DNA of 64,000 nt from a virus. The stretch spans positions 64,001 through 128,000 of IMG/VR virus record IMGVR_UViG_3300035181_002074; one strand, 5' to 3'. Numbering within the stretch: the stretch's first letter is position 1; every line of letters begins with the position of its first letter. Below the pieces are notes generated by a model that was not told the origin of the DNA, searched no databases, and saw only the letters and a list, made by a program, of their open reading frames with translations. The translations under genes and the position numbers were made by a program. Of this stretch, positions 31,057-61,689 are shown piece after piece.

Positions 31057-31254
31057 ATGAAAAAGCTGTCTAAATTACTGGATGAAACATTTACAACCTT
31101 GGATCAAACCTCTGATTTAGAGAATACCACGGTTTTAAATAAAATGCAAGCCGTAATTTTGGAAGCTAAAGGGTACGATGGAATTGCTTCATCAGAAACC
31201 TTTAAAGAGTTTAAAAGTTTATTCAAAGCCCTTCAGAAAAGGTCGGAGAGATAA
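31057..31254 (+). CDS. hypothetical protein
   Basis: Coupled small ORF. Confidence 0.6.
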   Translation: MKKLSKLLDETFTTLDQTSDLENTTVLNKMQAVILEAKGYDGIASSETFKEFKSLFKALQKRSER

Positions 31255-33296
31255 TGTCAGATAATAATAATACGCCTAGTTTGCCGAAATCAAGTGAGAG
31301 ACAGGTTTATACTGTTGATCATGAAGGCAAAGATTTGCAAAAAGTTGATACCACAGCCGTTGCTAAAGTTGAAGGTGAAGATTATCTTGGCCAAATTTTA
31401 AAATCCCTAAAAGATCAGCAAGTAGCACAGCGAGTTGCTTTCGAAGTTGATCCAAGTAATGTCCAAGGCGTTTCTTCTTACGGAGCCCTTTATGTACAAA
31501 AAACTAAACTTACGCCTGATTGGGTTATTAAAGCCTTAACCGGCCCTGGCGGAGATGAATTATTAAATCAAATTCTTCAAGCACGATCAAATGTAATCGC
31601 TTCTTTTGGTAGACCGAAATCAGATCGATTTTCAGTTGGTTTTGAGTTTTTACCAATTAACAAGTCCACTGAAATTGACAAGGATGCGGATAAAGCTGCA
31701 GCAGTAAAAGATCTCATCGAGAAAGCCAAAGAGATTTTCTGGAACTGTGGATATGCTGGATTAAAAGAAGACCAAACTACCAATCTTTCTCAGTTTTTAA
31801 AGATGATTGTTCGCGATGGTTTACGTTTTGGACGTTGCGCTATCGAAGTGATTCATGCTGTTGACCCAACCTCGGAAAGTGGCGAAAAAGTACATTCTTT
31901 CCGTCCAGTAGACTCTGGAACTATTTATAGAATTAAACCTAAGTCTGAAACAGACCAGTCTGTCCGTAATTCGGCAATCAAACTGTTACAAGAATTAAAA
32001 AACGAAAAAATTGATGTTACAAAATACAAAAAAGATGAATATAAATGGGTTCAAGTGGTTGATGGTAAACCAATCCAAGCATTTTCTGATAAAGAATTAA
32101 TTGTTTATAATTTTTATCCAACCACTAACGTGGAATACAGCGGATACCCATTAACTCCGATTGATCAAGCTATTAGCGCGATCATGACTCATATTAATAT
32201 CACTTTGCACAATAAACTCTATTTCCAGCATGGCCGCGCTACTCGTGGTATGCTAGTTTTCAATTCTGAATCAATGGATGAAATGTCAGCGCAAAAAATC
32301 CGTTTACAGTTCAATCAAACTATTAATACGGTACACAATAGCTGGCGTATGCCGGTTTTCGTAGTAGGTGAAACTGAGAAAGTTACTTGGCAGCCGATCG
32401 ATCAAGGCGGCAGAGATATGGAATTCCAATATCTCATGGATAATAATAGCCGTATCATTATGGGTGCATTTCAAATGTCTCCAGATGAATTGCCGGGCTA
32501 TAATCACCTATCTCGTGGTACCAATACTCAAGCATTAAGCGAAAGTTCGAATGAATGGAAAATGACTGCATCTCGCGATACAGGATTACGTCCATTAATT
32601 TACGATATTCAAGATCTATTTAATACCCATTTATTTCCAAGATTCTTACCAAATCTTTCTGAATCTCATCAGATGATCTTTTCTGGCTTAGATAAAGAAG
32701 ATCCAGAAAAAGAATCTACTCGTTTACAGCAAGATATGAATGTTCATTTAACATACAATGACATCCTTAAAAAAGTTGAAAAAGATATTTTGCCTGCGGC
32801 TTTTGGTGCAGATTTTCCTCTTAATCCACAATTCCAGCAAGTTGTTGAAAAGTACATGACTTTTGGTGAAATCCAAGAAAACTTTTTTGGTAAAAAAGGT
32901 GCAGCCCAAGATCCTAGAAATCAATGGTATGCTAATCCAATGTGGATGCAACAGCAACAAATGCTTGTCCAAAATGCACAGATTGCTATGCAAAATCAAA
33001 TGCAAGCCCAACAAATGGTTGCCCAAGCCATGAATCCACAGCCACAACAAGATCCTAATGCCCCTCAACAAGAAGGTGACGGTGGGGAACCTACGCAGAA
33101 ATCTGAAAAAGATTTTTATGGTGAAATATTCCAAAAGAATATGCAAAATATTCAAACTAATCATAACACGATCAGTAATATGATTCTAGCTAGACATTCT
33201 GCTATTACTAAAAAGCATTCAGATGATTTCCAAAAGCAATCTAAAAAAGCTGCTGAAAAATTAACAGCCGGACTGATTAAAAAGAAGAAAAAATAA
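31254..33296 (+). CDS. portal protein
   Basis: FRPVDSGTI, GYPLTPI, YFQHG...RGML, DMEFQ, FQMSPDEL, GLRPL. Confidence 0.9.
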   Translation: MSDNNNTPSLPKSSERQVYTVDHEGKDLQKVDTTAVAKVEGEDYLGQILKSLKDQQVAQRVAFEVDPSNVQGVSSYGALYVQKTKLTPDWVIKALTGPGGDELLNQILQARSNVIASFGRPKSDRFSVGFEFLPINKSTEIDKDADKAAAVKDLIEKAKEIFWNCGYAGLKEDQTTNLSQFLKMIVRDGLRFGRCAIEVIHAVDPTSESGEKVHSFRPVDSGTIYRIKPKSETDQSVRNSAIKLLQELKNEKIDVTKYKKDEYKWVQVVDGKPIQAFSDKELIVYNFYPTTNVEYSGYPLTPIDQAISAIMTHINITLHNKLYFQHGRATRGMLVFNSESMDEMSAQKIRLQFNQTINTVHNSWRMPVFVVGETEKVTWQPIDQGGRDMEFQYLMDNNSRIIMGAFQMSPDELPGYNHLSRGTNTQALSESSNEWKMTASRDTGLRPLIYDIQDLFNTHLFPRFLPNLSESHQMIFSGLDKEDPEKESTRLQQDMNVHLTYNDILKKVEKDILPAAFGADFPLNPQFQQVVEKYMTFGEIQENFFGKKGAAQDPRNQWYANPMWMQQQQMLVQNAQIAMQNQMQAQQMVAQAMNPQPQQDPNAPQQEGDGGEPTQKSEKDFYGEIFQKNMQNIQTNHNTISNMILARHSAITKKHSDDFQKQSKKAAEKLTAGLIKKKKK

Positions 33297-33314
33297 TCTT
33301 ATTCGGAGAATTCA

Positions 33315-34163
33315 ATGAATCTATCTACCGATCAAGAAGAACTAATCAAAATAACCTTACAGGCTTTGTTTGAAACTATCAAAGCCAAGTTTCTTGGTAA
33401 TTTTTACAAAGGACCATCGATTTATTTTGAATTAGCTACTAAGCAAAATCCACTAGATACCGTTGGTGGTATTTTTGAGTACGCATTGAGAGCAACCACG
33501 AAAAATCCCGTTATCGATCATGACCTCATTAGTAAGCTTGCGAATACATCAGAAAATTATATCGAAGCCGAAAAACAACGCACAATGGAACGGATTTTAA
33601 CCGGCGCCGAAACAGTTACAAATCCCGACGACCTGAAAGATCTTATTCAAACGTCTATTGATAAATCGAGCAAATATATTGACTTATTAATGGCAACGGA
33701 AACTCGCAATGTACAAGCGTGGGGTGAAATGTCTGGAATTCAGCAGGTTGGTGCATCTTTGGGCGTAGATGATCCAACTATCGCTCGCTTAGGTGTATGG
33801 GATGATAAGATTTGCGATGCTTGCCTGAAATTATGGCACCAACCGGATAATCAAAAAATACCACGTGTATGGAAAATGTCAGAGCTTCAAAGTGGGTATA
33901 ATACCGATCAAAAGAATCCCGTGCCAACCGTATCAAGTACGCACCCCCGGTGCAGACATATCCTGACAATTGTTCCACCCAGTTTTGGGTATGACGAAAA
34001 CGGGCGAATTAAGTTTATTCGGTTCGGTTATGATATCTATGATGATCAAAAGGGTATTCATAAAAATGAACGATCTTTCCGTACAGGTGGTACGACTGAC
34101 GATGTGGAAGAATTTATTAATCTGCATCTAGCAGAAAGCTGTTGTAATCATTCAGGAACTTGA
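33315..34163 (+). CDS. head morphogenesis protein (SPP1 gp7/Mu F-like)
   Basis: CDAC...HPRCRH; follows portal. Confidence 0.75.
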   Translation: MNLSTDQEELIKITLQALFETIKAKFLGNFYKGPSIYFELATKQNPLDTVGGIFEYALRATTKNPVIDHDLISKLANTSENYIEAEKQRTMERILTGAETVTNPDDLKDLIQTSIDKSSKYIDLLMATETRNVQAWGEMSGIQQVGASLGVDDPTIARLGVWDDKICDACLKLWHQPDNQKIPRVWKMSELQSGYNTDQKNPVPTVSSTHPRCRHILTIVPPSFGYDENGRIKFIRFGYDIYDDQKGIHKNERSFRTGGTTDDVEEFINLHLAESCCNHSGT

Positions 34164-34219
34164 TTAAGCCTTAAGCCTAATATTTTAGGTAGTCACTGCA
34201 GGGTAAGGATTAATTTACA

Positions 34220-36199
34220 ATGAAAATATACGGAATAGGCGCCAGTCAAGCCATTGATTCTTCAGGGGAAATCTTAATGATCGACGGTGTCGATCTATCC
34301 GATGTTCATGCTGGAAAAGCCTTCTTCAATTGGGAGCACAGTAACGATGGCGCCGATACCTGCGTCGGAAGCCTGACTTTTGCCAAAAAAATCTATTCTG
34401 AAAAAGACTGTGAAAATCCAAAACAATTAGAATGCTGGAATGAAACCCTTTTACCAATGATTTACATTGAAGGGGTTCTCTTTGATAAAGAAGGACATGT
34501 TGGGGCAATTTGCTTGGCCGCTATGTTTCGTTCATTTGTAGCCAGAAATCAAAAAATTGAAATCGGTTCTTCCATTGAAGGTTCTACCATGGAACGTGGA
34601 AAAGGCGAAGAGCACCATGTTCTTAAAAGAACTGTAGCCCGCCGTTGGGCAATTACCCTCAGACCGTGTAACAAGCAATGTTTCCTTAAGGTATTGGCAG
34701 ACGATACTGCTGATGTAATGAAATCGGAAATCGACTGGGATTCTATCAGTCATGATCGTGCCCCAAAACATGGATTCATCGAAATCGACGACCCAATCGA
34801 AGATATTTACCACACTATTAATGAATTAAATAAAACCCTAACAGCTGGATCGTCTAATGTTGCACCAAGTCAAATGGTTGGCGGATCTGCACTTACCCGT
34901 GAAAATCTAGTACCTAAAATGCAAAACGTTGGGATGCAAACTAGACTGAAAGCATCATTCAAGCGTTGGAATAAAAAGAAACCACTTAAGGAGCACCTTA
35001 AATCTGAGCTTGAAGATGTATCAGAGGAGTATATAGATAACTTCGCTAAACTCGCTGATGAACTCCATATTAAGAAATCTGAAGAATCAATGCATACTTG
35101 GCAACAAGTTTGGAATAATATGAAAGATTTCCATACTGGTTCAGTTAATGAAAAAGATGCACCCCATATGCACAAAGATGCGCAAAAATATGAGCATTAT
35201 AAACTTAGAAAAATCCCACTATCAAGTTTACATCATGGATCTGATACGCCCGATAAACCATTAGATCGCGAAGATGAAGCGCATGCACATCATTACGCTA
35301 AATTAGATACCCAAGCGCCACCAATCACTCTGCACCCAAAAGAAACTGGTTACCATATCGTAGATGGTCGTCATCGTGCTAGAGCTGCATACCTGAGAGG
35401 CGACAAAGATATTCTAGCTTACGTTGGTACTCCTATTCAAGCATTCACTAAATCTGAATCCCCTATTCGTATAGACCAGTCAATTGGTAATGATCGCGCA
35501 AATGCAGACCAGAAAGCTTTAATTGCAGGTATAGTTGTGCCAGCCAATGGCGGACAAAATATTCAAGTCATGAATGATTACGGCCAATCATCCCATATCA
35601 AGCCTTCTGCCCTGACCGAATCAGGTGGAGAAACCGCTAAAAATGCTTCTGCATATTATGCTGCAGCAAAAGATTTTTTCGACTTGGGCGAGCATGTTCC
35701 AGTATCAGCCTATTTTGCACACCAGACGGCACCACAAGAAGGGGCACCATTATTTCTAGCCACCGAGCATGTATCTGGTAAGCCATCGCTCATGGGTTCA
35801 TTGTTTGAGGATTCTATCGGTAAAGATAAAAATCTTATGCATAAAATTGCATTAATGGATACTATTTTGGGAAATTCACACAGAAACCATGGTAATATTA
35901 TATTGGGAGATACACCAAAGCTGATTGACAACGAACACGCTTTCGAATATAAACAAAAACCAGCGTTTCACATCAATCAATCCGGTGCCGACATTATTTC
36001 CGAAGATGTTCGTAATTGGTTAACTAGTAAGGATGCCAAGAAATTGGCTGGCTTGCTTGCATCACATAGAATCGGTATAGACCGTATTAAGAAAGCTATT
36101 TTTGCATTGAAGACTGCACAAAAAATGAATCATCATCCGATAGGTACCATTTTAGAGAACGTCCACTTTGTGGAACCTTCTCCAGAGGTAGCACAGTAA
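34220..36199 (+). CDS. prohead protease fused to ParB/Srx-like and PI3/4-kinase-like domains
   Basis: GIGAS..IDSSGE, NWEH, GSSIEG, AITLRPCN (protease); IVDGRHRARA (ParB); DTILGNSHRNHGN..IDNEHAF (kinase-like). Confidence 0.82.
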   Translation: MKIYGIGASQAIDSSGEILMIDGVDLSDVHAGKAFFNWEHSNDGADTCVGSLTFAKKIYSEKDCENPKQLECWNETLLPMIYIEGVLFDKEGHVGAICLAAMFRSFVARNQKIEIGSSIEGSTMERGKGEEHHVLKRTVARRWAITLRPCNKQCFLKVLADDTADVMKSEIDWDSISHDRAPKHGFIEIDDPIEDIYHTINELNKTLTAGSSNVAPSQMVGGSALTRENLVPKMQNVGMQTRLKASFKRWNKKKPLKEHLKSELEDVSEEYIDNFAKLADELHIKKSEESMHTWQQVWNNMKDFHTGSVNEKDAPHMHKDAQKYEHYKLRKIPLSSLHHGSDTPDKPLDREDEAHAHHYAKLDTQAPPITLHPKETGYHIVDGRHRARAAYLRGDKDILAYVGTPIQAFTKSESPIRIDQSIGNDRANADQKALIAGIVVPANGGQNIQVMNDYGQSSHIKPSALTESGGETAKNASAYYAAAKDFFDLGEHVPVSAYFAHQTAPQEGAPLFLATEHVSGKPSLMGSLFEDSIGKDKNLMHKIALMDTILGNSHRNHGNIILGDTPKLIDNEHAFEYKQKPAFHINQSGADIISEDVRNWLTSKDAKKLAGLLASHRIGIDRIKKAIFALKTAQKMNHHPIGTILENVHFVEPSPEVAQ

Positions 36200-36816
36200 T
36201 GAAAGTTTTAAGAGTTACTTCTGATTATGTTGACGTACCACTATTAGAAGTACGTACTGATGGTAATAAAATTGAAATTATCGTTGATAATAGTAATGGC
36301 AAGATCAGCAAGGAATTGGATGACACCCTAGCTTCTTTACATGATTATGTTAAACATTCATCCCATTTAAAACTAACTGAACCAGATGAGCCAGCCGCAC
36401 ATTTACTTCGTTACGTTTTAGAGAATGGTGATGTTGCAGAAGTTACGACCGATGGTGCTACGTGTGTATTGAATAATAAACTTTTATCACGCCAAGAAAA
36501 AGCAGCCTTTTTTGATGCTTTATCATCTGGTCAAATTAAAGTTGCTCGCAAGGCTGATATTCAAACTCCAATTCCCGTGCCTGCTGGAACGAAAAGACAA
36601 CCGCAACCAAATGAGCCTAAAAAGGTTAAATTGGATATGCATATATTAGAGCAATACAATGATCAGCAGCGTGAAAAAAAGAAGAAGCAAGAAGATCAAG
36701 CTCTAAGAGGTGAGGCTGATTTTGGTGATGCGACGTTTGAAATACCGTCTACTGATATACCATTTGCTCAAAGTATTGCTCAAGTCATAGCGAAGGACAA
36801 GTATGCCAACAAATAA
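36199..36816 (+). CDS. hypothetical late protein
   Basis: TAATG-coupled to the protease gene. Confidence 0.7.
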   Translation: MKVLRVTSDYVDVPLLEVRTDGNKIEIIVDNSNGKISKELDDTLASLHDYVKHSSHLKLTEPDEPAAHLLRYVLENGDVAEVTTDGATCVLNNKLLSRQEKAAFFDALSSGQIKVARKADIQTPIPVPAGTKRQPQPNEPKKVKLDMHILEQYNDQQREKKKKQEDQALRGEADFGDATFEIPSTDIPFAQSIAQVIAKDKYANK

Positions 36817-39800
36817 TGATAACGTGCCTGATATTGACATACGTCAAGCTACTCCGCCAGCGATGGAACAGCCCCAAGCGATCAATGAAGAATTATCTCC
36901 AGAAACTGATGCGGAACCTACTTGGCAGCCGCATGGAGATCATTGGCGTAACTTATCAGACCAAGATGCTACTCCAGAATATTTAGATAGCGTAGCTCAA
37001 CAGCATATTGCTAACCCTGATTTTATTGATAAGTACGACTCCGAAAAGCTAGCCGAACATCCAAATATCACGCCGGAGACCTTAAATAACTTATATAATC
37101 ATTATTCACAAGATCCTGATAAACATAAATATTTAGAGCAGCTGGCTGCTATTCATGGTAATCCAAATGCCCCAGCCGCTATACATAACACGACTTTAGA
37201 TAACTGGCTAGCGCAACCTAATTCTGATACCGCATCTAATGCTTCTAATCCGATATTAAACGCTGCATTAAACCATCCCAACGTCCCGCAAGAAAAAGTT
37301 CATCAAGTACTGGATCGAGTAATTAGTGACCCTAAGAATAATAACCATCTTGATGCATCAAGAGCTGATCCAGCTTGGTTGCAAAATAAATATAACGAAG
37401 CTAAACAAGCACATGATGATAATTTTCATGAGCTTTCCGTTTCCGGTCGATTACGCGACTCTCAGAAAAAGATTAGCCATTATGGCAATGAATTGATCGA
37501 TCACCCAAATCATACGCCAGAATCATTAAGCGCACTCCATAATCAGATCACTACTCAAGGCAATGGCAGCGCTGCTGAACGATTACTGGAAAAACAGCCA
37601 AACTTATCGCATAATCAAGTCGAAGATCTATATAATAAATTTAAACCAGAAGAAGGCAGCTGGTCTAATATTACCTCTAGAGCTTTTGGTCATAATAATA
37701 TTGACCCAGCTTTTTTGGCGCACAAGGCGCTGACCGGTAACGATCAAGAAAAGGAAGAGGCTCTTCAGTCTGAAAAACTTCCGCATGAAACGCAAAAGAA
37801 GATTACGGAAGATGCCATTGCTAGTGGTGATAGCAACACTCTAGCACAGCTATTAGAAAATAAATCCTTACCTTCCGAGTTAGTACATCAAATCTATAAT
37901 AATAGTGCTAATGAAGGTGACTATGCTCGCCGTAAGGCTTTTAATCATGGTAACTTTCCAGAGCATGAAGTGGAAAATGCGTGGAATTCATCAGATAAAA
38001 GTCGTGAAACTACAAAACAGTTTTTGCAACGCGATGTGTTGCCAAAATCCGTTTTAGCTGATATCATTACTAAAGGTAAGCCCGTTGATGCAGCTAAAGC
38101 GGTTGGCCATAAAAGTACCGATAAAGATATTTTAGATATTGCCGCCAAACGTAAATCTAAAGATGTTAAAGCTGCTATTGCTAGGCATCCTTTAGCTGCC
38201 GAATCCAATGTTCAGGATTATATTAAATCTGGCCATGTTCCTGCTGATCAATATTGGGCAAAATTTGACAGCAAATTACCACCCGAAGATCAAGCAAAAA
38301 TGCATCAGCATTACTTTGATAAATTAATGACCGCTGCACCAAATAAAAAAACGGACGGGCTTGCCGGAAAATCCGCTATCAATTTGTACAATTCGCCTCA
38401 TCTCACTGCTGAGCAAAAAAATAAAATTACGGAAAAAGCATTGCACGAGAGCGATTCATATAATTATGGTTATGATGATCGCAGAGCATTTCTGAAAGTT
38501 ATAGGTCAGGCAGCCAATGATGGCAATGAAGAGGCCATTAAAAAAACATTTTCCGGTCGTGGTAGTATTGAGGCGTTACAATTAGAAAAAGCGCATAACC
38601 CAAAAGTGATCAGCACTGCACTAGATATAGCCATGGGTAGGGCAGAGGATGACCGATATAGTGATAATGACAGATCTGGAATCGCTTCTAAAATAATTGC
38701 AAATCCAAACTTAAGTGACGATCACGTGCATTCGTTACTATCTAACGAAGACTTAGATCTGACTGTCGCAGTGGCGGATGGCGCAATTTCCAAGCATTTA
38801 GAAACGAAGACTCCAGAGCAGCAACAACAGTTCTTGAATAATTTAGCTCAATCAGGAGATCATGGTAAAGCATTAGTGATTGCTAATCCATCCACACCGA
38901 TTGAGATGAAAAATCAGCATATTAATTCTCTCGATAGCGATCATATTGCTGCTTTAGCGTATACCATGGGTACTAGATTTGGCGAAATGGCCAAAGGTTT
39001 ACCAGAAGATACTAAATTAAAGCTGTATTCCATGCCAACCAGTAGTCGGACACCGATGTTTGATCGGATGAAAGAGGCTTTTTCACCGGAACAAACTCCG
39101 TTAAGCACTTTACTTTCCAGCGTACCGTCAACTGATATGCGTCACATACTTAAGTATAGTATTTCCGATAAATATAAATTCACGGCAGATGCAGTTCCAG
39201 TAGTATTACAAAAAAGTCCAGAAGCTTTTGATACATATTTCGATAGAATGGTATCCCAGCATCCACATTATAGTGTCCGTCGAGATCATCCAGCTCATAA
39301 TCATATGAAAGATACCATTAATTCTATACTACCCCACTTAAATGAGGATAATGGTGTTCATGCCATCATTGGTATGATGACGTCTGAAGCTACTAGACAT
39401 AGTTCAGAAAGCGCCAAAGGTGCCTTTAACTTTTTACTAGATCCAGCCCAAAGCCCATTTTTAGACCCAGCAGCTAGGGAAGAATTAATCCCAATGGCTT
39501 TGAAGCGTGATCTTTTCGATGACGAGACCAAGAAACAAATTTTTAGTGATCCAGCTTATCAAGCCACGTTAATTGCTAATGCTAGTACGCCACCAGCAGT
39601 GAAAGCTAATTTAATTCAAAGTAATCTAGCATCTGGGCAAGCTTCCGATGCAATCTGGAATGCTATTAAAACTGAACCGAGAGTATTTGGAAGTCTTGAT
39701 CGTGATAGCGATGAGCAGATGTTTAAAAGTATCATTAATGAGGGTGCTCGTCGTGCAGATCATGATACGGTTGCCAATACTTTTAAAGAGTTTTTAGATT

Positions 39801-44728: not shown

Positions 44729-45547
44729 ATGAAATTCTCCGATATAGAAATAGATCAACTATTAGCATCCGTAGAAGATGCTATGGCACAAGCTAGTAAG
44801 CTTGCTAAGTCTCAGCCGATGCAAAAAGATGCAGACGCTGATCAAGACGATCAGCAAGCTGCTCCAGCAATGGATGCCCAAGCTCCTGAAAGCGCTCCAG
44901 CAATGGACGCTGCTCCAGCTGCTGATGCACAAGCTGCTCCTGATCAAGACCAAGGACAAGACCAAGCCCCAGAAGGTTCACCAGAAGATCAAATCCAAGA
45001 TGAAGGACAAGATCAAGGCGAAATTTCTGATGAAGAACTTCACCAAATCTATGCGAGCATGGATGAAAATGAACTTCATAGGCATTTGACTGCTATTGAA
45101 GCAGCTCTAGGTGGTGGACAAGATCAAGGCCAAGAACAAGAACAACAAGCTCCAGAACAAGCGCCAGCAGCTGCTCCGGCACCTGCGTCAATGACTGACC
45201 AAATGGCGATGAAATCTGAACAAACTGTAAGTGACCTCAATAAATCTGAAACTAAAAAGCTTCAAGATGAAAATGATGCACTTAAAAAGTCACTTGATAA
45301 AGTAATTTCAGCAATGGGTAAAGCTTTTCAGCCAACTCGTAAAGCTGTAACCGATATCGAGTATATCCAAAAATCAGAGTCTCAAACCGACGAGCGTCCG
45401 CTCACTAAGTCTGAAACTGTGGCACAACTCAACAAAATTGTAAAATCTAACAGCCTCTCAAAAGCCGATAGACAAGCAATCAACGATTACATCCTTGCGG
45501 ATGGATCACAAGAACAAGTCAAAAAAATTCTCAAAGGGGGAAAATAA
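44729..45547 (+). CDS. scaffolding protein
   Basis: Acidic, low complexity, many KS(E) sites, directly upstream of the capsid gene. Confidence 0.75.
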   Translation: MKFSDIEIDQLLASVEDAMAQASKLAKSQPMQKDADADQDDQQAAPAMDAQAPESAPAMDAAPAADAQAAPDQDQGQDQAPEGSPEDQIQDEGQDQGEISDEELHQIYASMDENELHRHLTAIEAALGGGQDQGQEQEQQAPEQAPAAAPAPASMTDQMAMKSEQTVSDLNKSETKKLQDENDALKKSLDKVISAMGKAFQPTRKAVTDIEYIQKSESQTDERPLTKSETVAQLNKIVKSNSLSKADRQAINDYILADGSQEQVKKILKGGK

Positions 45548-45550: not shown

Positions 45551-46939
45551 ATGGACTTAATTAAGCAACTAGAATCCCTAGTTAAAACCTTAGAGGCTGG
45601 AAGTTACAATTCAGCACCGGGACAATTAGTACAAGGATCTGCGCTTCAATCTGAAGATCTGTCAGCTGTTATGCATAATGTGTGTATCGCTTCAGATGAG
45701 ATTAAATTGCAGAAACTTTTCGGTAAGAAAAAAGCAAAATCTCTTACCATCCAATTCAATCGTCAGTTATCATACGGACGTTTGGGTGGAGCAGCTCAGC
45801 GCGAAGGCGCGGTTGGTAATACCAACGTAGGCGACTACGTTCGTGCTACAGTACCTATGTGCTTCTATTCAGAAGTACGCAGAGTGACTGAAGCAGCTAA
45901 CTTGATCGAAGCATTTGATGGTATCAAAGCAGAAGATCGCGAAGCTGAAAACGCAGCTGAAGTAATTGCTATGAACATTGAGTTCGACCTTTTCAAAGGT
46001 AAAGCAGACTTCTCTAACGCAGGTGTATTTGATGGTCATCCAGCAGCTATGCCTGAATTACCAAACATGCTTGGAGTTGACTCTCAAATTCGTCAATCTG
46101 ACATGCTTGTAACTACTCAAGACCTTATGTTCGCGTCTTACGGATCTAATCAATCTGTAGTTCTTGCTCAGAACGCTGCTCTTGACCAGATCGTAATTGA
46201 AGATGCTCGTCTTCGTGCAAAGTTGAACTTTTCACAAGCTAAGAATCTTTATGTAGATCCTGTAATCATGACTAGCTACAACAAAAAAGTTGCACTTGGT
46301 ACTGGTACTAACAGTATTCAACGTATTCAACTCGCTGGTTCTGCTCAAGACGTTTCTGGAGCTTCTCTCCGTCGTCAATGGACAGCTCACGGTGATGTTA
46401 ATCTTGAAGAGTCTCACTTCTTACGCGGTAAGACTTCTCCACTTCGTCCAAACATTGGTGGGCCTTCTGCTCCAGCAATCACTACTCAACCATCTTTCGG
46501 TGGTTCTGGTTCATTGATTACTGCGGGTACTTATGTTTACCTAGTAACTGCTCAAAGTGAAATCGGCGAAAGCCCTGCTACTGCTACTAACACAGTTTCT
46601 CCTACTACTGGCACAGTTGTTACTATGACAATTACTGCTCAGTCTGGAGTTAAGTTTTACAGCATCTATCGCGGAACTAATGCTAAGAATGCTAAGTTCA
46701 TCGGTAACGTTGCTGCAACTGGTGGAAACGTAGTATTTACTGACCTTGGTAATAAGGCTCCGGGATTCGTCACAGGGTACCTCCTAGACGAGAAGACTTG
46801 GGAAATGCATGATCTTGCCGCTTACAGTCGTAAGAAACTTGCTCAATCCGATCTTTCTACTCCAGAGGCCCATTATACCTTCACAACTGTGGCAGGATAC
46901 CAACCTCGTAAAAATGTAATTATCGATAATTTAATTTAG
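45551..46939 (+). CDS. major capsid protein (SPO1/Twort-like, with inserted Ig/FN3-like domain)
   Basis: KTLEAG...GSALQSEDL N-terminus, IEFDLFKG, TYVYLVTAQSEIGES insertion; strong codon bias; followed by a terminator. Confidence 0.9.
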   Translation: MDLIKQLESLVKTLEAGSYNSAPGQLVQGSALQSEDLSAVMHNVCIASDEIKLQKLFGKKKAKSLTIQFNRQLSYGRLGGAAQREGAVGNTNVGDYVRATVPMCFYSEVRRVTEAANLIEAFDGIKAEDREAENAAEVIAMNIEFDLFKGKADFSNAGVFDGHPAAMPELPNMLGVDSQIRQSDMLVTTQDLMFASYGSNQSVVLAQNAALDQIVIEDARLRAKLNFSQAKNLYVDPVIMTSYNKKVALGTGTNSIQRIQLAGSAQDVSGASLRRQWTAHGDVNLEESHFLRGKTSPLRPNIGGPSAPAITTQPSFGGSGSLITAGTYVYLVTAQSEIGESPATATNTVSPTTGTVVTMTITAQSGVKFYSIYRGTNAKNAKFIGNVAATGGNVVFTDLGNKAPGFVTGYLLDEKTWEMHDLAAYSRKKLAQSDLSTPEAHYTFTTVAGYQPRKNVIIDNLI

Positions 46940-50812: not shown

Positions 50813-51973
50813 ATGAGTTTAAGCGTATTAGAAGATAGCATTATTTACTTACTCCACACTGAACCTTTCTATGCCCATCTCTTAATGAGAATGCGTCGCA
50901 TGAAAACGACTAAGATCGAAACCGCAGGTGTTCGTATTACCGACGGAATCGACCTTCTTTATAATGAAAACTATCTGATTAAGCAAAAAACTGCCCACGG
51001 CATTAAAGCCCCTGCTGGGATTCTTAAGCATGAGTGCGAGCATGTGTTATTCCTACACTTGGGCGGACGTCAAGAAGGTTTCGAACACAAGAAATTCAAT
51101 ATCGCTGCTGATTGCTCTATTAACCAATTTAATTCCCTGATTGACGGTATGAAAGAGGATATTGTTACCCTTGATAACTTTAAGAAGCTCGTGGAAAATC
51201 CAAATGTGGAAGCTCAACAAACTCTTGAATATTACTATGGCCTTCTTCAGAAAAAATCTGACGAGAAAAAAGGTGACCCAGAATTTCAGAAAATGCTTGA
51301 CCAGATGTCTGAGTCTTTAGACGACCACGGCACATGGGATGAATCAGTTTGTGGTGAAGCCCAAAAACGTATTGCTCAATATGCGGTTAATCAGGCTGCT
51401 ACGTCAACTGGCAGAGGCAACCTTCCCGCTAATATTGCCAAACAAATTGAAACAATGAACAAAGAAACCCTTAACTGGAAATCCATCTTAAGGCGCTTCT
51501 GGAGTCGTGGAGTAACTGTAGAAATTAAATCCACTAGAATGCGCGTAAATCGTCGTTGGGGTATCGCTCAACCGGGTAAACGCACAAATCCATTGGTTCA
51601 CGTTGCAATGGTTATCGATACTTCTGGCTCTATGGGAGATGACGACATTGATGCAATTTTTTGTGAAGCGAAACGTATTCACGACACTGGTGCTACTGTA
51701 ACGATTATTGAATGTGATACAGAAGTGCATAAAACATGGACTTATCAAGGTAAAAATAATGTAGAAGTGCATGGCCGTGGCGGTACCAGTTTCCAGCCCG
51801 GTTTGGATGCTGCAGCAAAAGCTGATGCAGATGTTTGTATTTATTTTACGGATGGGGACGGCGAACAAGATTTTAAACTCCCTAAAATGCCAGTACTTTG
51901 GGTATTGACCCGCGAAGGCCACTCTGGAACAGTTCCAGAAAAAGGACTTAAAGTATGGATGAAAACGAAGTAA
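50813..51973 (+). CDS. metallopeptidase + vWA protein (DUF2201-like)
   Basis: HECEH, NIAAD..IN, DTSGSM MIDAS, GRGGTSF, YFTDG. Confidence 0.88.
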   Translation: MSLSVLEDSIIYLLHTEPFYAHLLMRMRRMKTTKIETAGVRITDGIDLLYNENYLIKQKTAHGIKAPAGILKHECEHVLFLHLGGRQEGFEHKKFNIAADCSINQFNSLIDGMKEDIVTLDNFKKLVENPNVEAQQTLEYYYGLLQKKSDEKKGDPEFQKMLDQMSESLDDHGTWDESVCGEAQKRIAQYAVNQAATSTGRGNLPANIAKQIETMNKETLNWKSILRRFWSRGVTVEIKSTRMRVNRRWGIAQPGKRTNPLVHVAMVIDTSGSMGDDDIDAIFCEAKRIHDTGATVTIIECDTEVHKTWTYQGKNNVEVHGRGGTSFQPGLDAAAKADADVCIYFTDGDGEQDFKLPKMPVLWVLTREGHSGTVPEKGLKVWMKTK

Positions 51974-52356
51974 GAAAAAGACTTCATCGTTTTAGCGGAT
52001 TAATGGCTAGCACTGTGCATGCTATCTACATGAACGAGATTATACATTCTAGCAAACCAAAACCTGAATTATACAATGATCTAGTGCTTGTTGATTATCC
52101 AGCCATACAAATTGGAATTATTCATATTTTGCCAGTACCAGAAGAAATATTAGCTTTTCTTGTAGATTATCCAAGCACGTCTGAAGCTGTAAGGCTCGAA
52201 ATTGCTTCGAAAACCACTAGTCATGACCTTATTCTGAAACTACACCAGTCTGCGAGTCATGTGGTCTCACGCGCCGCTCTTTACAACAAGAACGCTCCTG
52301 CTAATATCCAAATGCTCAGAATTAAAGACGAATTAGTAATGAAAATTAATAAATAA
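51955..52356 (+). CDS. hypothetical protein with LRV-like repeats
   Basis: VRLEIASK...SRAALYNKNAP. Confidence 0.55.
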   Translation: MDENEVRKRLHRFSGLMASTVHAIYMNEIIHSSKPKPELYNDLVLVDYPAIQIGIIHILPVPEEILAFLVDYPSTSEAVRLEIASKTTSHDLILKLHQSASHVVSRAALYNKNAPANIQMLRIKDELVMKINK

Positions 52357-52428
52357 AAAAGGGTTGACTAAAACAATAAACCCTGATAGTATTAAAGTAA
52401 CAACAACCCCGAAAGGAAAACTTGACCG

Positions 52429-53508
52429 ATGAAGATTAGTGAAATTAAAAGAGGATTACCCCACCTGATTGCCGCAAAAGTTCCAGCATTACTTATTGGA
52501 CACCACGGCTTAGGTAAAAGTTCTGTAATGAGACAAATTGCAGATGAATCTGGAATGACATTTTTTGATGTACGCCTTGGAACTATGTGCGATCCGGGCG
52601 ATTTACTTGGACTTATGATCGAGCGCCAAGATGCTGAAGGCAACAAATCTTTTGAACACGTGCTACCAGCTTGGTGGCCTAAAGCCGGTGAACGCAAAAT
52701 GATCTTTATCGACGAGATCAATCGTGCTCGCCCAGATATGCTCCAAATGGTATTCCAATTAATCCTTGATCGTCGTATCCATACCCATGTATTGCCAGAA
52801 GGCTGTACTGTGCATGCTGCGATGAATCCAGACAGCAATGATTACAAAACTACCAATATTGACGATGCCGCTTTATTGAGTCGTTTTTGCCAAATTAAGT
52901 TTACTCCATCCCAAGAAGAATTTCTTGAATATGCTCGCAGTAAACCAAAATTTGATTCTACTTTCCTTGGCTTCGTAGCAGAAAATATGCAAATGGTTGA
53001 CTGCACTGGCCTTGAATCATTCGAAGTAAAAGCGAAACCAGATCGTCGTGCTATCGTAAGAGCTGAAGAAGTGCTTTCTTCGGGATTACCAGAAGATCTT
53101 TGGATTGAGATGCTTGGCGGAATGCTTGGTTACGAAATGGCTGTAAAATACGTTGAATACGTAAAGTCAAACGAAATCAAACCACTTACTTTTGAACAAG
53201 TAGTTGGTGCATACAATAAACACAGCCATGTTGTTGCTGCTATGATGAAAAAAGAACGTCATGATGTAGTGACTGTAACCGTGGACAATGTATTGTCGGA
53301 GCTTTTCAAGCGTAAAGATTTGACTAAGAAAGAATCATTGAATATTAGATCATTCTTGCTTGATATCCCTAAAGATATTACTCAAGGTTTCATCAACAGA
53401 TTCCTTTCTGATTCTCCAAGTCATGCGAATAATCCAGTAAGCATTAACATCAATAAATATGTTCTTGATGACGCTTTCGTGGAAACGTTCTCAGCGAAAG
53501 TGAAATAA
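52429..53508 (+). CDS. MoxR-like AAA+ ATPase
   Basis: GHHGLGKS, FIDEINRA, AMNP, DAALLSRF. Confidence 0.9.
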   Translation: MKISEIKRGLPHLIAAKVPALLIGHHGLGKSSVMRQIADESGMTFFDVRLGTMCDPGDLLGLMIERQDAEGNKSFEHVLPAWWPKAGERKMIFIDEINRARPDMLQMVFQLILDRRIHTHVLPEGCTVHAAMNPDSNDYKTTNIDDAALLSRFCQIKFTPSQEEFLEYARSKPKFDSTFLGFVAENMQMVDCTGLESFEVKAKPDRRAIVRAEEVLSSGLPEDLWIEMLGGMLGYEMAVKYVEYVKSNEIKPLTFEQVVGAYNKHSHVVAAMMKKERHDVVTVTVDNVLSELFKRKDLTKKESLNIRSFLLDIPKDITQGFINRFLSDSPSHANNPVSININKYVLDDAFVETFSAKVK

Positions 53509-53509
53509 T

Positions 53510-56724: not shown

Positions 56725-57975
56725 ATGACCCCAAAAGATAATATTACAATTCAAAAAACTATCGCCGACTACTTCAGCACATTGCCTGTAACGAGTCAGA
56801 CATTAATAGTTCAGGCGATTAATGATCAAGTATCACCGTTATTGGCTACATATGCCAACCAATTAGGAATGAGCCCAGCAGATTATACTATTAATTTAGC
56901 TATTAATCAATCAATCCAAGAGGCAACCAAATCGTTAGCTAAATCCGAATCACTATATTCTATAGTACTGACAAACAGCCATACCTCTACACAAGATATT
57001 CAAAATCTTGTTGATGAGTTGGTATATAAAAGTTATTTCAATAATCAGGAACTTAATAAAAGCTTAAAGAATGCTGCAATCGGATTAGGAATGGCGGCAA
57101 TGTTTGCTAATCCTAGTGCTGCTCAGGGGTTAAAAGTTCAGAGCCCATCAAAAGCGACTTCTTATTTAACTCATTCCGCACCAAAAACTGCAGATATGCG
57201 TACAACGTTTGAACCAGAGCCGTGGGGCAGTCAACCAGAAGATGCTTTTTTACATAACACCATGCAACTCGAAACAAGCGGCGGCAAGAATACCCAGCAT
57301 AAAAAAATCACCTCCGGTCCACAAGCCGGACAGACAGCTATTGGTAGGTGGGCATTATTGCCCAACACTATCCGTGAAATGCATAATCGAAATAAAGGCC
57401 ACTGGGGGCATCCAGATTTAGAGCGTCTTGGCAGCATGAATGATACCCAAATGTCTAAATATTTACAATTAAATCCGGGCATTGAATTACATATTGCCCG
57501 TACTCTGGCTAAATTCGTAAATAAGAAGCAATGCGGCGATAAACTGAAATGTGCATATTCTTGGAAATTTGGCCATAATTTATCACCGAACGATATCGGC
57601 GCAGATAAATTAAATAATAGTTATGTGCAAGACTACCATAAATTACAGCAAGGTAAGTCACCTCGCGGATTGAGACCAGCATCGTTTGGATTTCCGTTAC
57701 AGCCAGCAAAAACACTAACCCCTAAACAACCGTTCCAGATCCTTAAAAGTGAAGCAGCTGATTTTGCTCCACGATTGAAACAATGGATCAAAGCTCGCGA
57801 AGACAAAGAGCAAGATACTATTTCAAATACTATGAAGCAGTATGATGATTTACGTGCAGTATCAGCCGTACCCGATAGTGGTACCAAGCCAGATGATCGA
57901 TTGAATCTTGATTTAGATAATCCCATGGATCGTATTAAACTTGCTATCAGAAAAGTTGTAGGTAAAGACGAATGA
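56725..57975 (+). CDS. virion protein with lytic transglycosylase/lysozyme-like domain
   Basis: QLETSGG...AIGRWALLPNT...AYSWKFG...YV. Confidence 0.65.
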   Translation: MTPKDNITIQKTIADYFSTLPVTSQTLIVQAINDQVSPLLATYANQLGMSPADYTINLAINQSIQEATKSLAKSESLYSIVLTNSHTSTQDIQNLVDELVYKSYFNNQELNKSLKNAAIGLGMAAMFANPSAAQGLKVQSPSKATSYLTHSAPKTADMRTTFEPEPWGSQPEDAFLHNTMQLETSGGKNTQHKKITSGPQAGQTAIGRWALLPNTIREMHNRNKGHWGHPDLERLGSMNDTQMSKYLQLNPGIELHIARTLAKFVNKKQCGDKLKCAYSWKFGHNLSPNDIGADKLNNSYVQDYHKLQQGKSPRGLRPASFGFPLQPAKTLTPKQPFQILKSEAADFAPRLKQWIKAREDKEQDTISNTMKQYDDLRAVSAVPDSGTKPDDRLNLDLDNPMDRIKLAIRKVVGKDE

Positions 57976-58478
57976 ATATAGCAGCTAATCAAATTCAAGA
58001 AAAGAAACTTGCTGGCGTTTGTAAAAATGGCCCAGTTGTGTATATCCTTACTAAAGGAGGACTCCACAGCATGTTCTCACGTGATGGAAAAGGTGATATA
58101 GTATCACTTGCCGCCGCCCCACACCGAGCGATTTGTACTTTTTTTGCTGAAAAGAAAGATCCTAGTATTAAGTGGCACAGTGATTTTTTATCTAAAACTG
58201 ATGGAACTGAAATTGACTTAATTAAGAACGAAGAAGATCAATTTCAAAAATATCGTAAAATGATTTGGTTTCAAACTGAAGATTTCTATAAATCGGAAGC
58301 GTCCGATATTTATTTCGTATATGATACATCATCAAATGATATCTGGATCTCTGATTTGAATGAAATTAAAGAAGATTTACAAAAGAATGAAATTAACCGA
58401 AATTGTATAGTTCGACCAATCGATCTCAGTGCTCCGCCAAGAATGCTGGATCTTTGTGATGAATTCAAAGTGGAATAA
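57972..58478 (+). CDS. hypothetical late protein
   Basis: Coupled ORF with K(S/N)E motifs. Confidence 0.7.
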   Translation: MNIAANQIQEKKLAGVCKNGPVVYILTKGGLHSMFSRDGKGDIVSLAAAPHRAICTFFAEKKDPSIKWHSDFLSKTDGTEIDLIKNEEDQFQKYRKMIWFQTEDFYKSEASDIYFVYDTSSNDIWISDLNEIKEDLQKNEINRNCIVRPIDLSAPPRMLDLCDEFKVE

Positions 58479-59598: not shown

Positions 59599-59625
59599 CC
59601 CTAATATTTTCACTAAGGAAACCTT

Positions 59626-59964: not shown

Positions 59965-59967
59965 GCT

Positions 59968-60534
59968 ATGTCAAACAACGACGATCTTAAATGCAAAACA
60001 ATGGGGAACAGGCTTTTTAAAAAACAACGCGCCGCTTTATCTAAAGCTAAATTGAATGAAGCTCCATCAGGTGCTGCAATACCCAAATTACCATCCATGC
60101 CTAAATTACCAGTAGCTCCAGTAGCTCCGGGTAAAAATCCTGCAGGCCAAGCAGCTAAGCAATCAATGCAAGCAGCTAAAGGTCAAAATACTAAAGTTGC
60201 CCAAGCACCAAAAGCTCCAAAATCGTTACAAACTCCGAAGGCTCCAACGACTCCGAAGATCGGAAAATCAGAATTACGCTTGAGTGAAAAAGAATTATAT
60301 ACCGATTGTGAACATTGCGGAACGCCACAATTTACGAAAACAGCGGCAGGACCAGAATATGCTCCATGCGCATGTTTCATGGTAACTAAGTCTGAAAAAT
60401 TTGTTACACTTAGTAAAAATGAATCAGGTTACTCTTTAGACTTCAATCCGAAATCAGATCCAGAATCTGTTAAGGCATTCCTTTTAGCTTTGAAAGCAAA
60501 ATTACTAGTTACGAAAAAATTTGGGGATCAATAA
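59968..60534 (+). CDS. Pro/Lys-rich protein with C-terminal Zn finger
   Basis: CEHC...CAC flanked by KSE motifs. Confidence 0.7.
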   Translation: MSNNDDLKCKTMGNRLFKKQRAALSKAKLNEAPSGAAIPKLPSMPKLPVAPVAPGKNPAGQAAKQSMQAAKGQNTKVAQAPKAPKSLQTPKAPTTPKIGKSELRLSEKELYTDCEHCGTPQFTKTAAGPEYAPCACFMVTKSEKFVTLSKNESGYSLDFNPKSDPESVKAFLLALKAKLLVTKKFGDQ

Positions 60535-61689
60535 ATGGATAACCTTTGGTGTGCAATGGTGAGTAAGCAAATAGCCGACTCGATCCGTAAAGACCTTGAT
60601 GGTGGTCGATTTGCGGATGCTACCAATGCTACTAACCTACTTAAAGCATTCCAACAAAACATTTCCAATATGTGCCAGCAAAACGGTGGACGTGTTCACG
60701 TATTTTTGCCTGAATGGATGGTAATGGAATGTCCACAATCCGTTGCGGAACAAATCCCACAATTATTGGCAAGCTTCAATGAGCAAATTGGTCATTCAAT
60801 GGCCTGCGGTATAGGCTTAGATTTTTCAGAAGCCGTGAAAGCTGTTCATCAGTCTGAACGTAGTGGTGAAATCTGCTTATACGAAGAAAAGACCTTGAAG
60901 TCGGAAGGATTATCTATTCCGCCCAATCTTTTTGATTACACCGATCAATCAGTAGCTAATAATGATGGAACTAACGCAGAAGAGCAAGAATTTGCCTCTG
61001 CACCAGATTTCCAGAATTCAGTTAAATTAGCGCAAGCCCAAATCCAAGCAATCATCCAGCAATTAGGCGGAGATGCCCAAGAAAAAGCTCAACAACAAAT
61101 TCAGCAGATTCAACAACAACAAGCACAGGCGCAACAAGCTCAGCAACAGCCACGTGATCTTACGGAAGCGTTACATGGCCAACAAATCCAAGGTCGCAAT
61201 CCATACAGTGGTGATTCAGCTAAACCAGAAGATAAAAAAGAATCTAAATCCGATTCTAAAGAAACTAAAAAAGACGAACCAGAAGCATCCGAAGAAGATG
61301 ATGGAAACGACGAAGTCCAGCAAAAACTTGGCGCCGCATTATTACATATCAAACAGCAAATTCCACAACTAATGGATCTCGCTGAAAAGAATCCAGATGC
61401 ATTCAAACAGTCAATGTCACTTGTTCAAAAACTTTTGAATCTCACAAAAAAGACCAAAGGTCAAGTTGAGAAAAGTGAAATGGAAATCTTGACTGAGGAT
61501 TTAAATAAAAAAATTATCCATTTACCGGTTGGCACAATCAAAGACCGCAAGAAAAAAGTATTAGTAAATGGAAAAGCTGTATGGCGCAGTATCATCAGTG
61601 GAGAGGTCCGCGATTTACAAGGCCAGCCTGTTTCTGTGAAGTCATCTAATCTCTCCGCATCCAAAGGCAAGCAAGCCGGAGAGAAATAA
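60535..61689 (+). CDS. protein with degenerate mCpol/GGDEF-like N-terminal domain and Gln/acidic linker
   Basis: QQNGGRV...ACGIGLDFSEAVKA...SG pattern. Confidence 0.55.
   Translation: MDNLWCAMVSKQIADSIRKDLDGGRFADATNATNLLKAFQQNISNMCQQNGGRVHVFLPEWMVMECPQSVAEQIPQLLASFNEQIGHSMACGIGLDFSEAVKAVHQSERSGEICLYEEKTLKSEGLSIPPNLFDYTDQSVANNDGTNAEEQEFASAPDFQNSVKLAQAQIQAIIQQLGGDAQEKAQQQIQQIQQQQAQAQQAQQQPRDLTEALHGQQIQGRNPYSGDSAKPEDKKESKSDSKETKKDEPEASEEDDGNDEVQQKLGAALLHIKQQIPQLMDLAEKNPDAFKQSMSLVQKLLNLTKKTKGQVEKSEMEILTEDLNKKIIHLPVGTIKDRKKKVLVNGKAVWRSIISGEVRDLQGQPVSVKSSNLSASKGKQAGEK

Follow-up and report, generated by a model that had tools for sequence, protein, structure and literature searches.

The short motif phi-x-K-S-E, in which phi is L, M, I, V, or F and Ala, Gly, Asn, or Thr sometimes replaces the Ser, is quite likely the recognition and cleavage site of a phage's own capsid protease, namely the first 165 residues of a 659-aa polyprotein encoded in the window analysed here (64,000 nucleotides, positions 64,001 to 128,000 of IMG/VR record IMGVR_UViG_3300035181_002074). 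The scissile bond, judged from the register of the motif, is most likely Lys-Ser. The features concerned are collected in Table 1.

Table 1. Motif sites and associated features, numbered by position in the window (canonical, fitting phi-x-K-S-E)
Feature	Positions	Strand	Residues or motif	Remarks
KSE662 of DnaE-type polymerase	7994..8002	-	S-I-K-S-E	no hydrophobic at -2
Portal	31254..33296	+	680 aa	Pfam Phage_portal and PHROG portal matches
Portal KSE230	31941-31949	+	K-P-K-S-E	no hydrophobic at -2
Portal KSE616	33099-33107	+	T-Q-K-S-E	no hydrophobic at -2
Putative MuF/SPP1-gp7-like minor head protein	33315..34163	+		adjoins portal in all six complete genomes
Variant site of MuF-like protein	34062-34070	+	aa 250, I-H-K-N-E	aligned to V-H-K-S-E of G001
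Predicted protease domain	34220..34714	+	aa 1-165 of 659	AF2 pLDDT 95.4
KSE168	34721..34729	+	V-M-K-S-E, canonical	directly after protease domain; pLDDT drops from >90 to <50 at 166-173
MCP N-arm copy	34796..34981	+	aa 193-254	own-genome match to MCP aa 3-61, 42% identity, E 8e-6
KSE261	35000..35008	+	H-L-K-S-E, non-canonical	inside conserved helix
KSE286	35075..35083	+	I-K-K-S-E	conserved phi-K-K-(S/N/G/A)-E in alignment of 70 homologues
ParB_N/Srx-like segment, weak	35201..35425	+	aa 328-402	PHROG ParB-like 2.4e-5
KSE411	35450..35458	+	F-T-K-S-E, canonical	398-411 disordered, confident domain from 412
Protein-kinase-fold domain	35453..36184	+	aa 412-655	pLDDT >90
Scaffold-position protein	44729..45547	+	272 aa	four KSE; N-half acidic, low-complexity
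Scaffold KSE162, KSE172	45212-45220, 45242-45250	+		motif count
Scaffold KSE215, KSE227	45371-45379, 45407-45415	+		motif count
Major capsid protein (MCP)	45551..46939	+	462 aa	zero KSE; PHROG major head protein 2e-35
DUF2201 zinc peptidase/VWA protein and MoxR ATPase	50813-53508			putative metallopeptidase in late module
416-aa head-module protein	56725..57975	+	416 aa	KSE73 (56941-56949), KSE341 (57745-57753), both canonical
168-aa protein	57972..58478	+	168 aa	KSE107 (58290-58298)
188-aa protein	59968..60534	+	188 aa	KSE100 (60265-60273), KSE141 (60388-60396), both canonical
384-aa protein	60535..61689	+	384 aa	KSE122 (60898-60906); KSE313 (61471-61479), canonical

Within the window, an exact recount reproduced the tally of the original prediction, namely 17 KSE in seven late proteins (portal, two; protease polyprotein, four; scaffold-position protein, four; and the 416-, 168-, 188-, and 384-aa proteins, two, one, two, and two, respectively) and a single replication-arm copy in DnaE, which we take to be a chance occurrence. 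Most sites had also been said to carry a hydrophobic residue two positions before the Lys; this holds for 12 of the 17 in late proteins (L, M, I, V, or F), leaving five without. When residues were shuffled inside each late protein for 20,000 rounds, KSE arose 3.16 times on average and 11 times at most, so that the enrichment that the prediction implied (17 observed vs 3.2 expected) survives correction for composition. KSE further shows the strongest late/early skew among 1000 tripeptides (17 vs 1, p 6.5e-5), and tripeptides with K, S, and E in other orders occur 2-10 times each. Across the complete 160-kb genome, ten head-module proteins, including three just outside the window, contain 24 of the 28 KSE, and no KSE was found in the genome's first 64 kb.

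The pattern recurs in the relatives that we compared, namely Myxococcus phage Mx1 (MCP identity 49%, GC 55%) and 80 IMG/VR relatives (GC 31-66%), the complete genomes being G000, G001, G002, G004, G005, and Mx1. In Mx1, 17 of 19 KSE fall in ten head-module proteins. In the pooled relatives, KSE ranks first among over-represented tripeptides (481 vs 146 expected, z 27.7), and RSE, KSD, and KSQ show no enrichment. The sole information added around KSE is the hydrophobic residue at -2 (L, M, I, V, or F in 80-82% of family sites vs a background frequency of 27%), and the flanks abound in E, K, S, P, and D, a composition like that of exposed linkers. The sites use all six Ser codons and 23 of 24 codon combinations, which shows that it is the peptide that is under selection. 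In four pooled genomes, KSE reaches 4.1x inside the head modules and 0.27x outside them (9 vs 33.6 expected), a depletion that depends on crude ORF calls and stands beside a span of 0.42-1.6x for 17 control tripeptides. Single sites turn over fast among relatives. The LxKS, KA, KT, and KNE variants listed by the original prediction fared unevenly: family-wide, the number of K-A/T/N-E tripeptides is barely enriched, but their -2 position is hydrophobic in 45-56% of cases (vs 80% for KSE), they stand in for KSE at orthologous positions, and K-A/G-E takes the place of the scarce KSE in high-GC relatives. We therefore consider it refuted, with a probability of practically nil, that KSE reflects chance or the composition of charged, Ser-rich linkers; its carriers are indeed rich in K, S, and E, but shuffling never attains the observed count, neither permutations nor one-letter variants are enriched, and the pattern recurs in more than 80 genomes of widely differing GC.

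The enzyme that would act on this motif is predicted from an AF2 model and structure searches, which bear out the earlier naming of the polyprotein as the protease. Residues 1-165 match the VZV protease (Z 10.7, rmsd 3.0, 111 aligned) and T4 gp21 (Z 10.3, rmsd 2.6, 122 aligned), with the next unrelated match at 4.9, and the best 50 Foldseek matches are all assemblins or gp21. His40 and Ser118, the candidate catalytic residues, in the motifs N-W-E-H and S-I-E-G, are invariant in 35-38 homologues, and the gene adjoins the portal and MuF-like genes in six of six complete genomes. We therefore assign this domain, on its modelled fold, as a predicted assemblin/gp21-fold capsid-maturation serine protease (MEROPS clan SH). 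It has no Pfam match even at E 10, no PHROG protease match, and no PDB sequence match, which makes it a separate, unmodelled family by sequence. HK97 gp4 is the classic assemblin-fold capsid protease, and the domain has no detectable sequence similarity to it (E 0.19).

Four KSE sites follow in the same polyprotein. KSE168 is, from its place in the model, a probable self-release site, and many protease homologues carry a KSE at aa 160-200. Beyond it lies a copy of the N-arm of the MCP, for which hhalign gave a probability of 97.4% (E 1.5e-11), with reciprocal matches in Mx1; the similarity makes this segment a candidate tether for procapsid co-assembly, and it is the only recognisable loading device among the KSE proteins, present in the protease protein alone. 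KSE286, for which an orthologue has L-K-K-G-E, closes the conserved N-terminal half, beyond which the C-terminal domains vary (GGDEF, kinase, HEAT, and acetyltransferase among homologues). KSE261 is doubtful as a cleavage site, and it and KSE286 both lie within predicted helices. A ParB_N-like segment (Pfam ParB_N E 0.003, under the cut-off; pLDDT about 30, poorly modelled) is flanked by KSE286 and KSE411, and KSE411 directly precedes a kinase-fold domain whose nearest relatives are type II PI4-kinases (Foldseek 4hnd, E 9.5e-7; weak PF00454, which is precomputed for many protease homologues).

The kinase-like domain on many family proteases, together with the strict requirement for both Lys and Glu, could suggest that KSE is a modification site, either for Ser phosphorylation by the fused domain or for a Lys/Glu cross-link. 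We regard this as hardly credible: Ala, Gly, and Asn replace Ser at orthologous sites, which excludes a phospho-Ser requirement, and many relatives without the kinase domain (with GGDEF, HEAT, or other C-termini) keep KSE.

Among the virion proteins proper, KSE behaves like a prohead-protease site, a reading supported by its multiple copies in the scaffold, its place after the protease domain and near the portal C-terminus, and its absence from the MCP. The scaffold-position protein has 2-8 KSE in nearly all of the 80 relatives, and in its orthologues the sites are retained or changed to K-A/N-E. Portal KSE616 has counterparts near the C-terminus in Mx1 (KSE639) and G005 (KSE680). Some KSE sites are probably uncut, namely that at portal aa 230 and a G-G-K-S-E within a Nudix box in Mx1. 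No KSE was observed in 120 MCP homologues (8.3 expected), and the MCP N-terminal region has no canonical variant site. The minor head protein is named as MuF-like from the HPHCRC motif of its relatives.

In the 416-aa protein, which is homologous to the C-terminal part of a KSE-rich 1479-aa protein of Mx1, KSE73 and KSE341 flank a possible SLT lytic-transglycosylase-like module (Atlas structure rows, TM 0.64-0.65 by row). The 168-aa protein has the variants L-I-K-N-E at aa 85 (aligned to I-K-K-S-E of G001) and L-Q-K-N-E at aa 138; the 188-aa protein has L-S-K-N-E at aa 150 and a Cys-rich stretch immediately N-terminal of KSE141. In the 384-aa protein, a possible mCpol/GGDEF-palm-like domain (aa 1 to ~120; Atlas structure rows, TM 0.72-0.73 by row, residues 1-118/124) ends at KSE122. 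Separately, a possible GNAT-like module was seen among the neighbouring genes. Thus the original prediction that the motifs sit at domain borders is borne out at KSE168 and KSE411 and has leads at KSE122 and KSE73/KSE341, with KSE261 and KSE286 lying in helices, and its kinase-like, ParB_N-like (weak), SLT-like, and mCpol-like domain guesses hold as leads.

That prediction further took the motif to be an encapsidation tag, which we did not find upheld: comparing every KSE-delimited segment and tail with all the others revealed no targeting peptide common to the KSE proteins, and N-terminal sites are no more frequent than internal or C-terminal ones. A related possibility is that KSE is an uncut docking motif recruiting proteins to the procapsid via the protease, scaffold, portal, or capsid interior. 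It would fit the restriction of KSE to head-module proteins and its occurrence in exposed linkers, yet it is improbable, since it leaves unexplained the up to eight copies per scaffold, the copy after the protease domain, the strict avoidance by the MCP, and the match with the HK97 cleavage register, and its carriers share no position or flanking peptide.

Cleavage by another enzyme is highly improbable. The late module does encode a putative metallopeptidase, the DUF2201 protein with its MoxR ATPase, but only G000 and G001 have this pair; it is absent from G002, G004, G005, and Mx1, whose head proteins are nonetheless KSE-rich; a host protease common to the family is unlikely because the hosts span GC 31-66%.

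We therefore return to the phage's own protease and to the bond it would cut. HK97 protease cuts at F-N-K103↓S104 (arrow, scissile bond), and the Delta domain of gp5 contains L-T-K-S and L-I-K-S (PMC10275583); reading these sites directly confirmed the Lys-Ser specificity stated in the original prediction, as phi-x-K↓S (PMC10275583). By this analogy, phi-x-K↓S-E may best be read as the HK97-type K↓S rule plus a Glu at P2'. The same protease and substrates could instead involve a cut after Glu (K-S-E↓), with a glutamyl specificity like that of T4 gp21 and phiKZ/SPN3US. The Glu is as invariant as the Lys, with KSD and KSQ unenriched, which is typical of P1; T4 gp21 (Z 10.3) is structurally as close as any assemblin; and T4-type and phiKZ-type proteases do cut in this way (PMC5694885). 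We nevertheless consider a cut after Glu unlikely, as it would place the hydrophobic residue at P5, whereas it is at P3 for the T4, herpesvirus, and HK97 enzymes, while the middle position accepts small residues only (S, then A, G, N, and T), typical of P1', and HK97 phi-x-K↓S has the matching register.

With cleavage between Lys and Ser, maturation could proceed as follows. The protease would be made as a polyprotein comprising (i) the protease, (ii) the MCP N-arm mimic and helices, (iii) the ParB_N-like segment, and (iv) the PI4K-like kinase, and would enter the procapsid with the scaffold, portal, MuF-like protein, and multi-domain head-internal proteins. Once activated, it would cut the motifs in exposed linkers, most likely at Lys-Ser, thereby dicing the scaffold, detaching itself from its tether, and possibly trimming the portal tail. 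The cuts would also separate enzyme-like modules that remain in the head, with the kinase-fold domain released at KSE411, and such packaged modules might be ejected into the host. More tentatively, the very large, uncultured Mx1-like family (~1,400 MCP clusters) may as a whole use phi-x-K↓S-E to address varied enzymes to the capsid interior, with the protease as the first cargo module, entering via MCP N-arm mimicry, and the rest of the proteome purged of the motif; such purging would imply that the protease is able to reach non-head proteins. If this were true, the head cargo of any family member could be read straight from its sequence.

Compared with known systems, the proposed site resembles that of HK97 in its hydrophobic P3, P1 Lys, and P1' Ser, and in a scaffold that would be cut at several sites. 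HK97 differs in having Leu, Gly, or Trp at P2', where Glu is obligatory here; the present phage has, in addition, a separate scaffold protein, a siteless MCP, a protease fused to cargo domains, and a dozen extra head-module proteins among its candidate substrates. In T4, the prohead core holds gp21, the gp22 scaffold, and the internal proteins IPI-III and Alt, which have capsid targeting sequences (PMC5694885, PMC9026906), and a many-cut scaffold, protease self-cutting, and cut internal proteins are known from T4 and SPN3US (PMC5694885, PMC10052503). The KSE carriers match this substrate pattern, which counts for the protease-site reading. As in T4, a single short protease motif would label the scaffold and the internal or ejected proteins as well as the enzyme; however, the T4 motif is L/I-x-Glu↓, the T4 MCP is trimmed whereas the MCP here is siteless, and T4 cargo has a removed N-terminal targeting peptide, of which no counterpart was found here.

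The phiKZ gp175 and SPN3US gp245 systems also come from large myophages and process many of their head proteins at a defined motif; there, the protease self-cleaves at its C-terminus and propeptides have multiple sites (PMC10052503, PMC5694885). They differ in their motif (A/S/G-x-Glu↓), in substrates that lose N-terminal propeptides, and in a protease unfused to enzyme domains. Finally, Iyer et al. (2017) described polyvalent proteins, which are late multi-domain proteins with ParB-like, kinase, GGDEF/NTase, GNAT, and peptidoglycan-hydrolase domains, which they predict to be carried in the virion and passed to the host (PMC5512222). The combination of a protease, a ParB_N-like segment, and a kinase fold in one late protein beside virion genes is alike. 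Whereas those authors ascribe processing to in-cis zincin-like peptidases (PMC5512222), the linkers here bear the motif attributed to the prohead protease itself, which also forms the start of one polyprotein.

The window phage (~39% GC; record of 160,612 bp, of which bases 64001-128000 form the window) carries its replication genes, including that for a 1191-aa DnaE-type polymerase, on the minus strand in the left arm of the window, and its terminase, portal, head, and neck genes follow on the plus strand from ~23.3 kb. The original prediction had counted 17 Lys-Ser-Glu (KSE) tripeptides in seven late proteins and one in DnaE, mostly with a hydrophobic residue two positions before Lys (position -2). 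The tally was exact, and Leu, Met, Ile, Val, or Phe occupies position -2 in 12 of the 17 late sites and is missing from the DnaE site. The predicted enrichment over composition was also borne out, with 17 KSE observed in the late proteins versus 3.2 expected; across 20,000 within-protein shuffles the mean was 3.16 and the maximum 11. Among 1000 tripeptides KSE was the most late/early-skewed, while the other orders of K, S, and E occurred 2-10 times each. Chance or composition is thus ruled out by the shuffles, permutations, and one-letter variants, and the KSE excess is real and highly significant. Genome-wide, ten head-module proteins account for 24 of 28 KSE, five of them in a 1249-aa protein just past the window end, and the first 64 kb of the genome contain none.

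The closest deposited phage, Myxococcus phage Mx1 (169.6 kb, 55.5% GC, MCP 49% identical), shares with the window phage the gene order helicase to terminase, portal, protease, MCP, and downstream virion genes. In Mx1, ten proteins of the portal-to-tail-sheath interval account for 17 of the 19 KSE, with two in the portal and three in the protein directly upstream of MCP. Among 80 IMG/VR loci (MCP 47-83% identical, GC 31-66%), the scaffold-position protein contains 2-8 KSE in nearly all and MCP none. Many scaffold homologues (loci L016-L046 and others) end in I-S-H-L-L-K, and others run a few residues past H-L-L; this conserved C-terminal element is presumably the capsid-binding end.

Encoded between protease and scaffold (36803-42931), a 2042-aa protein has no KSE, no Pfam match, and no homologue in the Mx1 head module (the first 41 kb of that sequence); its counterpart in a relative (L014; 1929 aa) begins M-T-D-T-P-E-K-S-E. 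A 149-aa ORF (48571-49020, plus strand) contains a tandem repeat (48652-48865; unit 15/30 bp, 14 copies, 87-92% matches) that on this strand would encode A-N-L-S-G/A-H-L-R-G units, the pattern of a pentapeptide-repeat protein, and is overlapped by an opposite-strand ORF. A C-5 cytosine DNA methylase (62652-63569; Pfam E 4e-57) is encoded on the late strand amid virion-module genes, and a single-sequence IMG/VR search with the protein starting at 58714 gave no match.

In pooled, dereplicated relatives (423,000 residues), no tripeptide is more over-represented than KSE (481 observed versus 146 expected, z 27.7), and RSE, KSD, and KSQ show no enrichment. Of the flanking positions, -2 alone carries information (L 33%, M 20%, I 14%, V 9%, F 6%), and E, K, S, P, and D are abundant in the site flanks. 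The sites are encoded variably, by 23 of 24 codon combinations and with all six Ser codons; selection therefore acts on the amino-acid sequence, and with both Ser codon classes in use a DNA-level motif is ruled out. Across four complete genomes (ORFs of at least 100 aa), head modules contain 78 KSE versus 18.9 expected (4.1x). Outside the head modules of the window phage, Mx1, and two further complete genomes (G001 and G002; ORFs of at least 100 aa), there are 9 versus 33.6 expected (0.27x, P 5e-7), below all 17 control tripeptides (0.42x-1.6x). Avoidance of the motif thus seems to extend across the whole non-head proteome, and this approximately four-fold depletion suggests selection against accidental protease sites in non-head proteins.

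Individual sites turn over fast between relatives, like short linear motifs in linkers. A 576-aa protein of G001 (82004-83734, minus strand) contains four L-P-K-S-E (aa 172, 248, 331, and 539) and an E-E-K-S-E at aa 547, and looks like a series of tandem modules, each closed by the same site; one L-P-K-S-E is common to this protein and a 415-aa protein of the window phage just past the window end. Small-residue variants (K-[G/N/T/A]-E) behave as minor sites, with a hydrophobic residue at -2 in 45-56%, versus 80% for KSE and a 27% background for L/M/I/V/F. At orthologous positions, I-H-K-N-E replaces V-H-K-S-E in the MuF-like protein, and A-M-K-S-E pairs with L-L-K-A-E, and L-N-K-S-E with L-L-K-N-E, in the scaffold. 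In high-GC members (G005, L047, L057, L059, L068, and L076; GC 0.64-0.66), KSE is scarce and the scaffolds carry phi-x-K-A-E and phi-x-K-G-E beside it (phi, L/M/I/V/F), which argues that the small residue tolerated there shifts with mutational bias.

The label "protease" given earlier to the 659-aa product of 34220-36199 proved right, since the fold of its first 165 residues matches the assemblins and T4 gp21. Pfam and PHROGs returned only a ParB-like match for the full protein, and the protease domain went unrecognized in Pfam, PHROG, and PDB sequence searches, being a family without an existing sequence model. The N-terminal ~160 residues are conserved among 70 homologues, with the motifs D-S-S-G-E, N-W-E-H, S-I-E-G-S, and R-P-C-N-K and invariant H40 and S118. 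An AF2 model of residues 1-165 (pLDDT 95.4) matched VZV protease (Z 10.7), T4 gp21 (10.3), HCMV protease (7.4), and KSHV protease (5.8), with unrelated folds from 4.9, and the Foldseek top 50 were assemblins or gp21 throughout.

Segments of the protease polyprotein encoded at 34220-36199
Segment	Residues	Window coordinates	Basis
Protease domain	aa 1-165		full-length AF2 model
Linker holding KSE168	after aa 165		low confidence in full-length model
Copy of the MCP N-arm motif	aa 193-254	34796-34981	matches MCP aa 3-61 (45557-45733)
Helices holding KSE261 and KSE286	after the N-arm copy		full-length model
Disordered stretch, weak ParB_N signal	ends at KSE411		full-length model and profile matches
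Protein-kinase fold, closest to type II PI4-kinases	aa 412-655		confident model; E 9.5e-7

The N-arm copy (hhalign probability 97.4%, E 1.5e-11) is conserved and has the motif L-x-K-T-L-[TE]-A-G ... A-P ... G-[GS]-A-L-x-x-E, and the match is reciprocal between the window phage and Mx1. It suggests a loading mechanism: as a mimic of the capsid protein, the copy may bring the protease, together with its cargo, into the procapsid. The C-terminal part is swapped in homologues for PI3/4-kinase, GGDEF, HEAT, acetyltransferase, or other domains, and a conserved phi-K-K-[S/N/G/A]-E (KSE286 here) marks the boundary between the constant and variable halves.

Candidate readers of the motif were compared. 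The late module encodes a putative metallopeptidase/VWA protein of the DUF2201 type (50813-51973) and a MoxR-type AAA ATPase (52429-53508), which would make a zinc peptidase conceivable, but this pair occurs in only two of six complete genomes (the window phage and G001), and is ruled out as a family-wide reader by its absence from the other four. The assemblin-fold protease adjoins the portal and the MuF-like gene in all six, and is therefore the only universal candidate. The best explanation is that KSE is a family-specific cleavage code, read by an HK97/T4-type prohead protease; the same code would also punctuate polyproteins of head-internal enzymes, among them the one whose first domain is the protease.

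Some KSE are probably not substrates. Cleavage is unlikely at portal aa 230 and, judging from the model, at KSE261, which lies in a conserved helix. It is also unlikely at G-G-K-S-E (aa 955) in a 1479-aa Mx1 protein (24404-28843), which falls inside a Nudix box; KSE lacking the -2 hydrophobic residue can, as here, be ordinary structural or catalytic sequence. In MCP, 0 of 120 homologues contain KSE versus 8.3 expected, and the sole recurrent variant, M-G-K-A-E, lies at about aa 228, within the conserved core; trimming of MCP at the motif is thus unsupported in the family, and a non-canonical site, K-A-K63-S64-L, is possible.

Four smaller carriers (starting at 56725, 57972, 59968, and 60535) had no Pfam or PHROG matches, and KSE-delimited modules gave only sub-threshold Pfam matches. 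In the ESM Atlas, where scores were below 0.9 and serve as leads only, the KSE73-KSE341 module of the 56725 protein resembles SLT lytic transglycosylases, and residues 1 to ~120 of the 60535 protein, ending at KSE122, resemble mCpol/GGDEF palm domains. The 1249-aa protein gave a weak GNAT match in one of its modules. These SLT-like, mCpol-like, and GNAT-like modules fit the "polyvalent protein" repertoire described by Iyer et al. (PMC5512222). Bracketing of the 56725 module by KSE in both phages holds on the right side only, the left site in the Mx1 1479-aa protein being that of the Nudix box. The proposal that the motif itself tags proteins for encapsidation found no support: no peptide common to the KSE proteins, and so a candidate for a general targeting signal, turned up in their heads, tails, or internal segments. 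The enzyme-like modules are putatively packaged and ejected.

To our knowledge, prohead-protease motifs are experimentally established in only a few model phages (HK97, T4, and phiKZ/SPN3US), and the literature searched yielded no paper linking KSE to proheads. So unusually sharp a code would make likely substrates and head-internal proteins predictable from sequence, in a very large and almost entirely uncultured family (the protein database contains ~1,400 MCP clusters, many of them from contigs of 130-175 kb). Since Mx1 is cultured and has the same KSE pattern, the cleavage-code reading is directly testable. Processing of "polyvalent" effector polyproteins was earlier ascribed to other peptidases (PMC5512222); here the prohead protease would be linked to them directly.

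As to the scissile bond, natural termini are uninformative: proteins ending in phi-x-K are in excess only through one scaffold subfamily ending in H-L-L-K, and M-S-E starts show no excess. T4 and phiKZ cut after Glu (PMC5694885). A scaffolding domain of 103 residues is removed from HK97 gp5 (PMC10275583) at a junction that reads, from the genome, T-F-N-K103↓S104-L-G, and the Delta domain of gp5 also contains L-T-K-S and L-I-K-S. This phi-x-K↓S register is that of the KSE motif and, together with the tolerance of small residues after Lys, makes K↓S-E a good deal more probable than a cut after Glu, with Glu as a probable P2' requirement added to the HK97 specificity.
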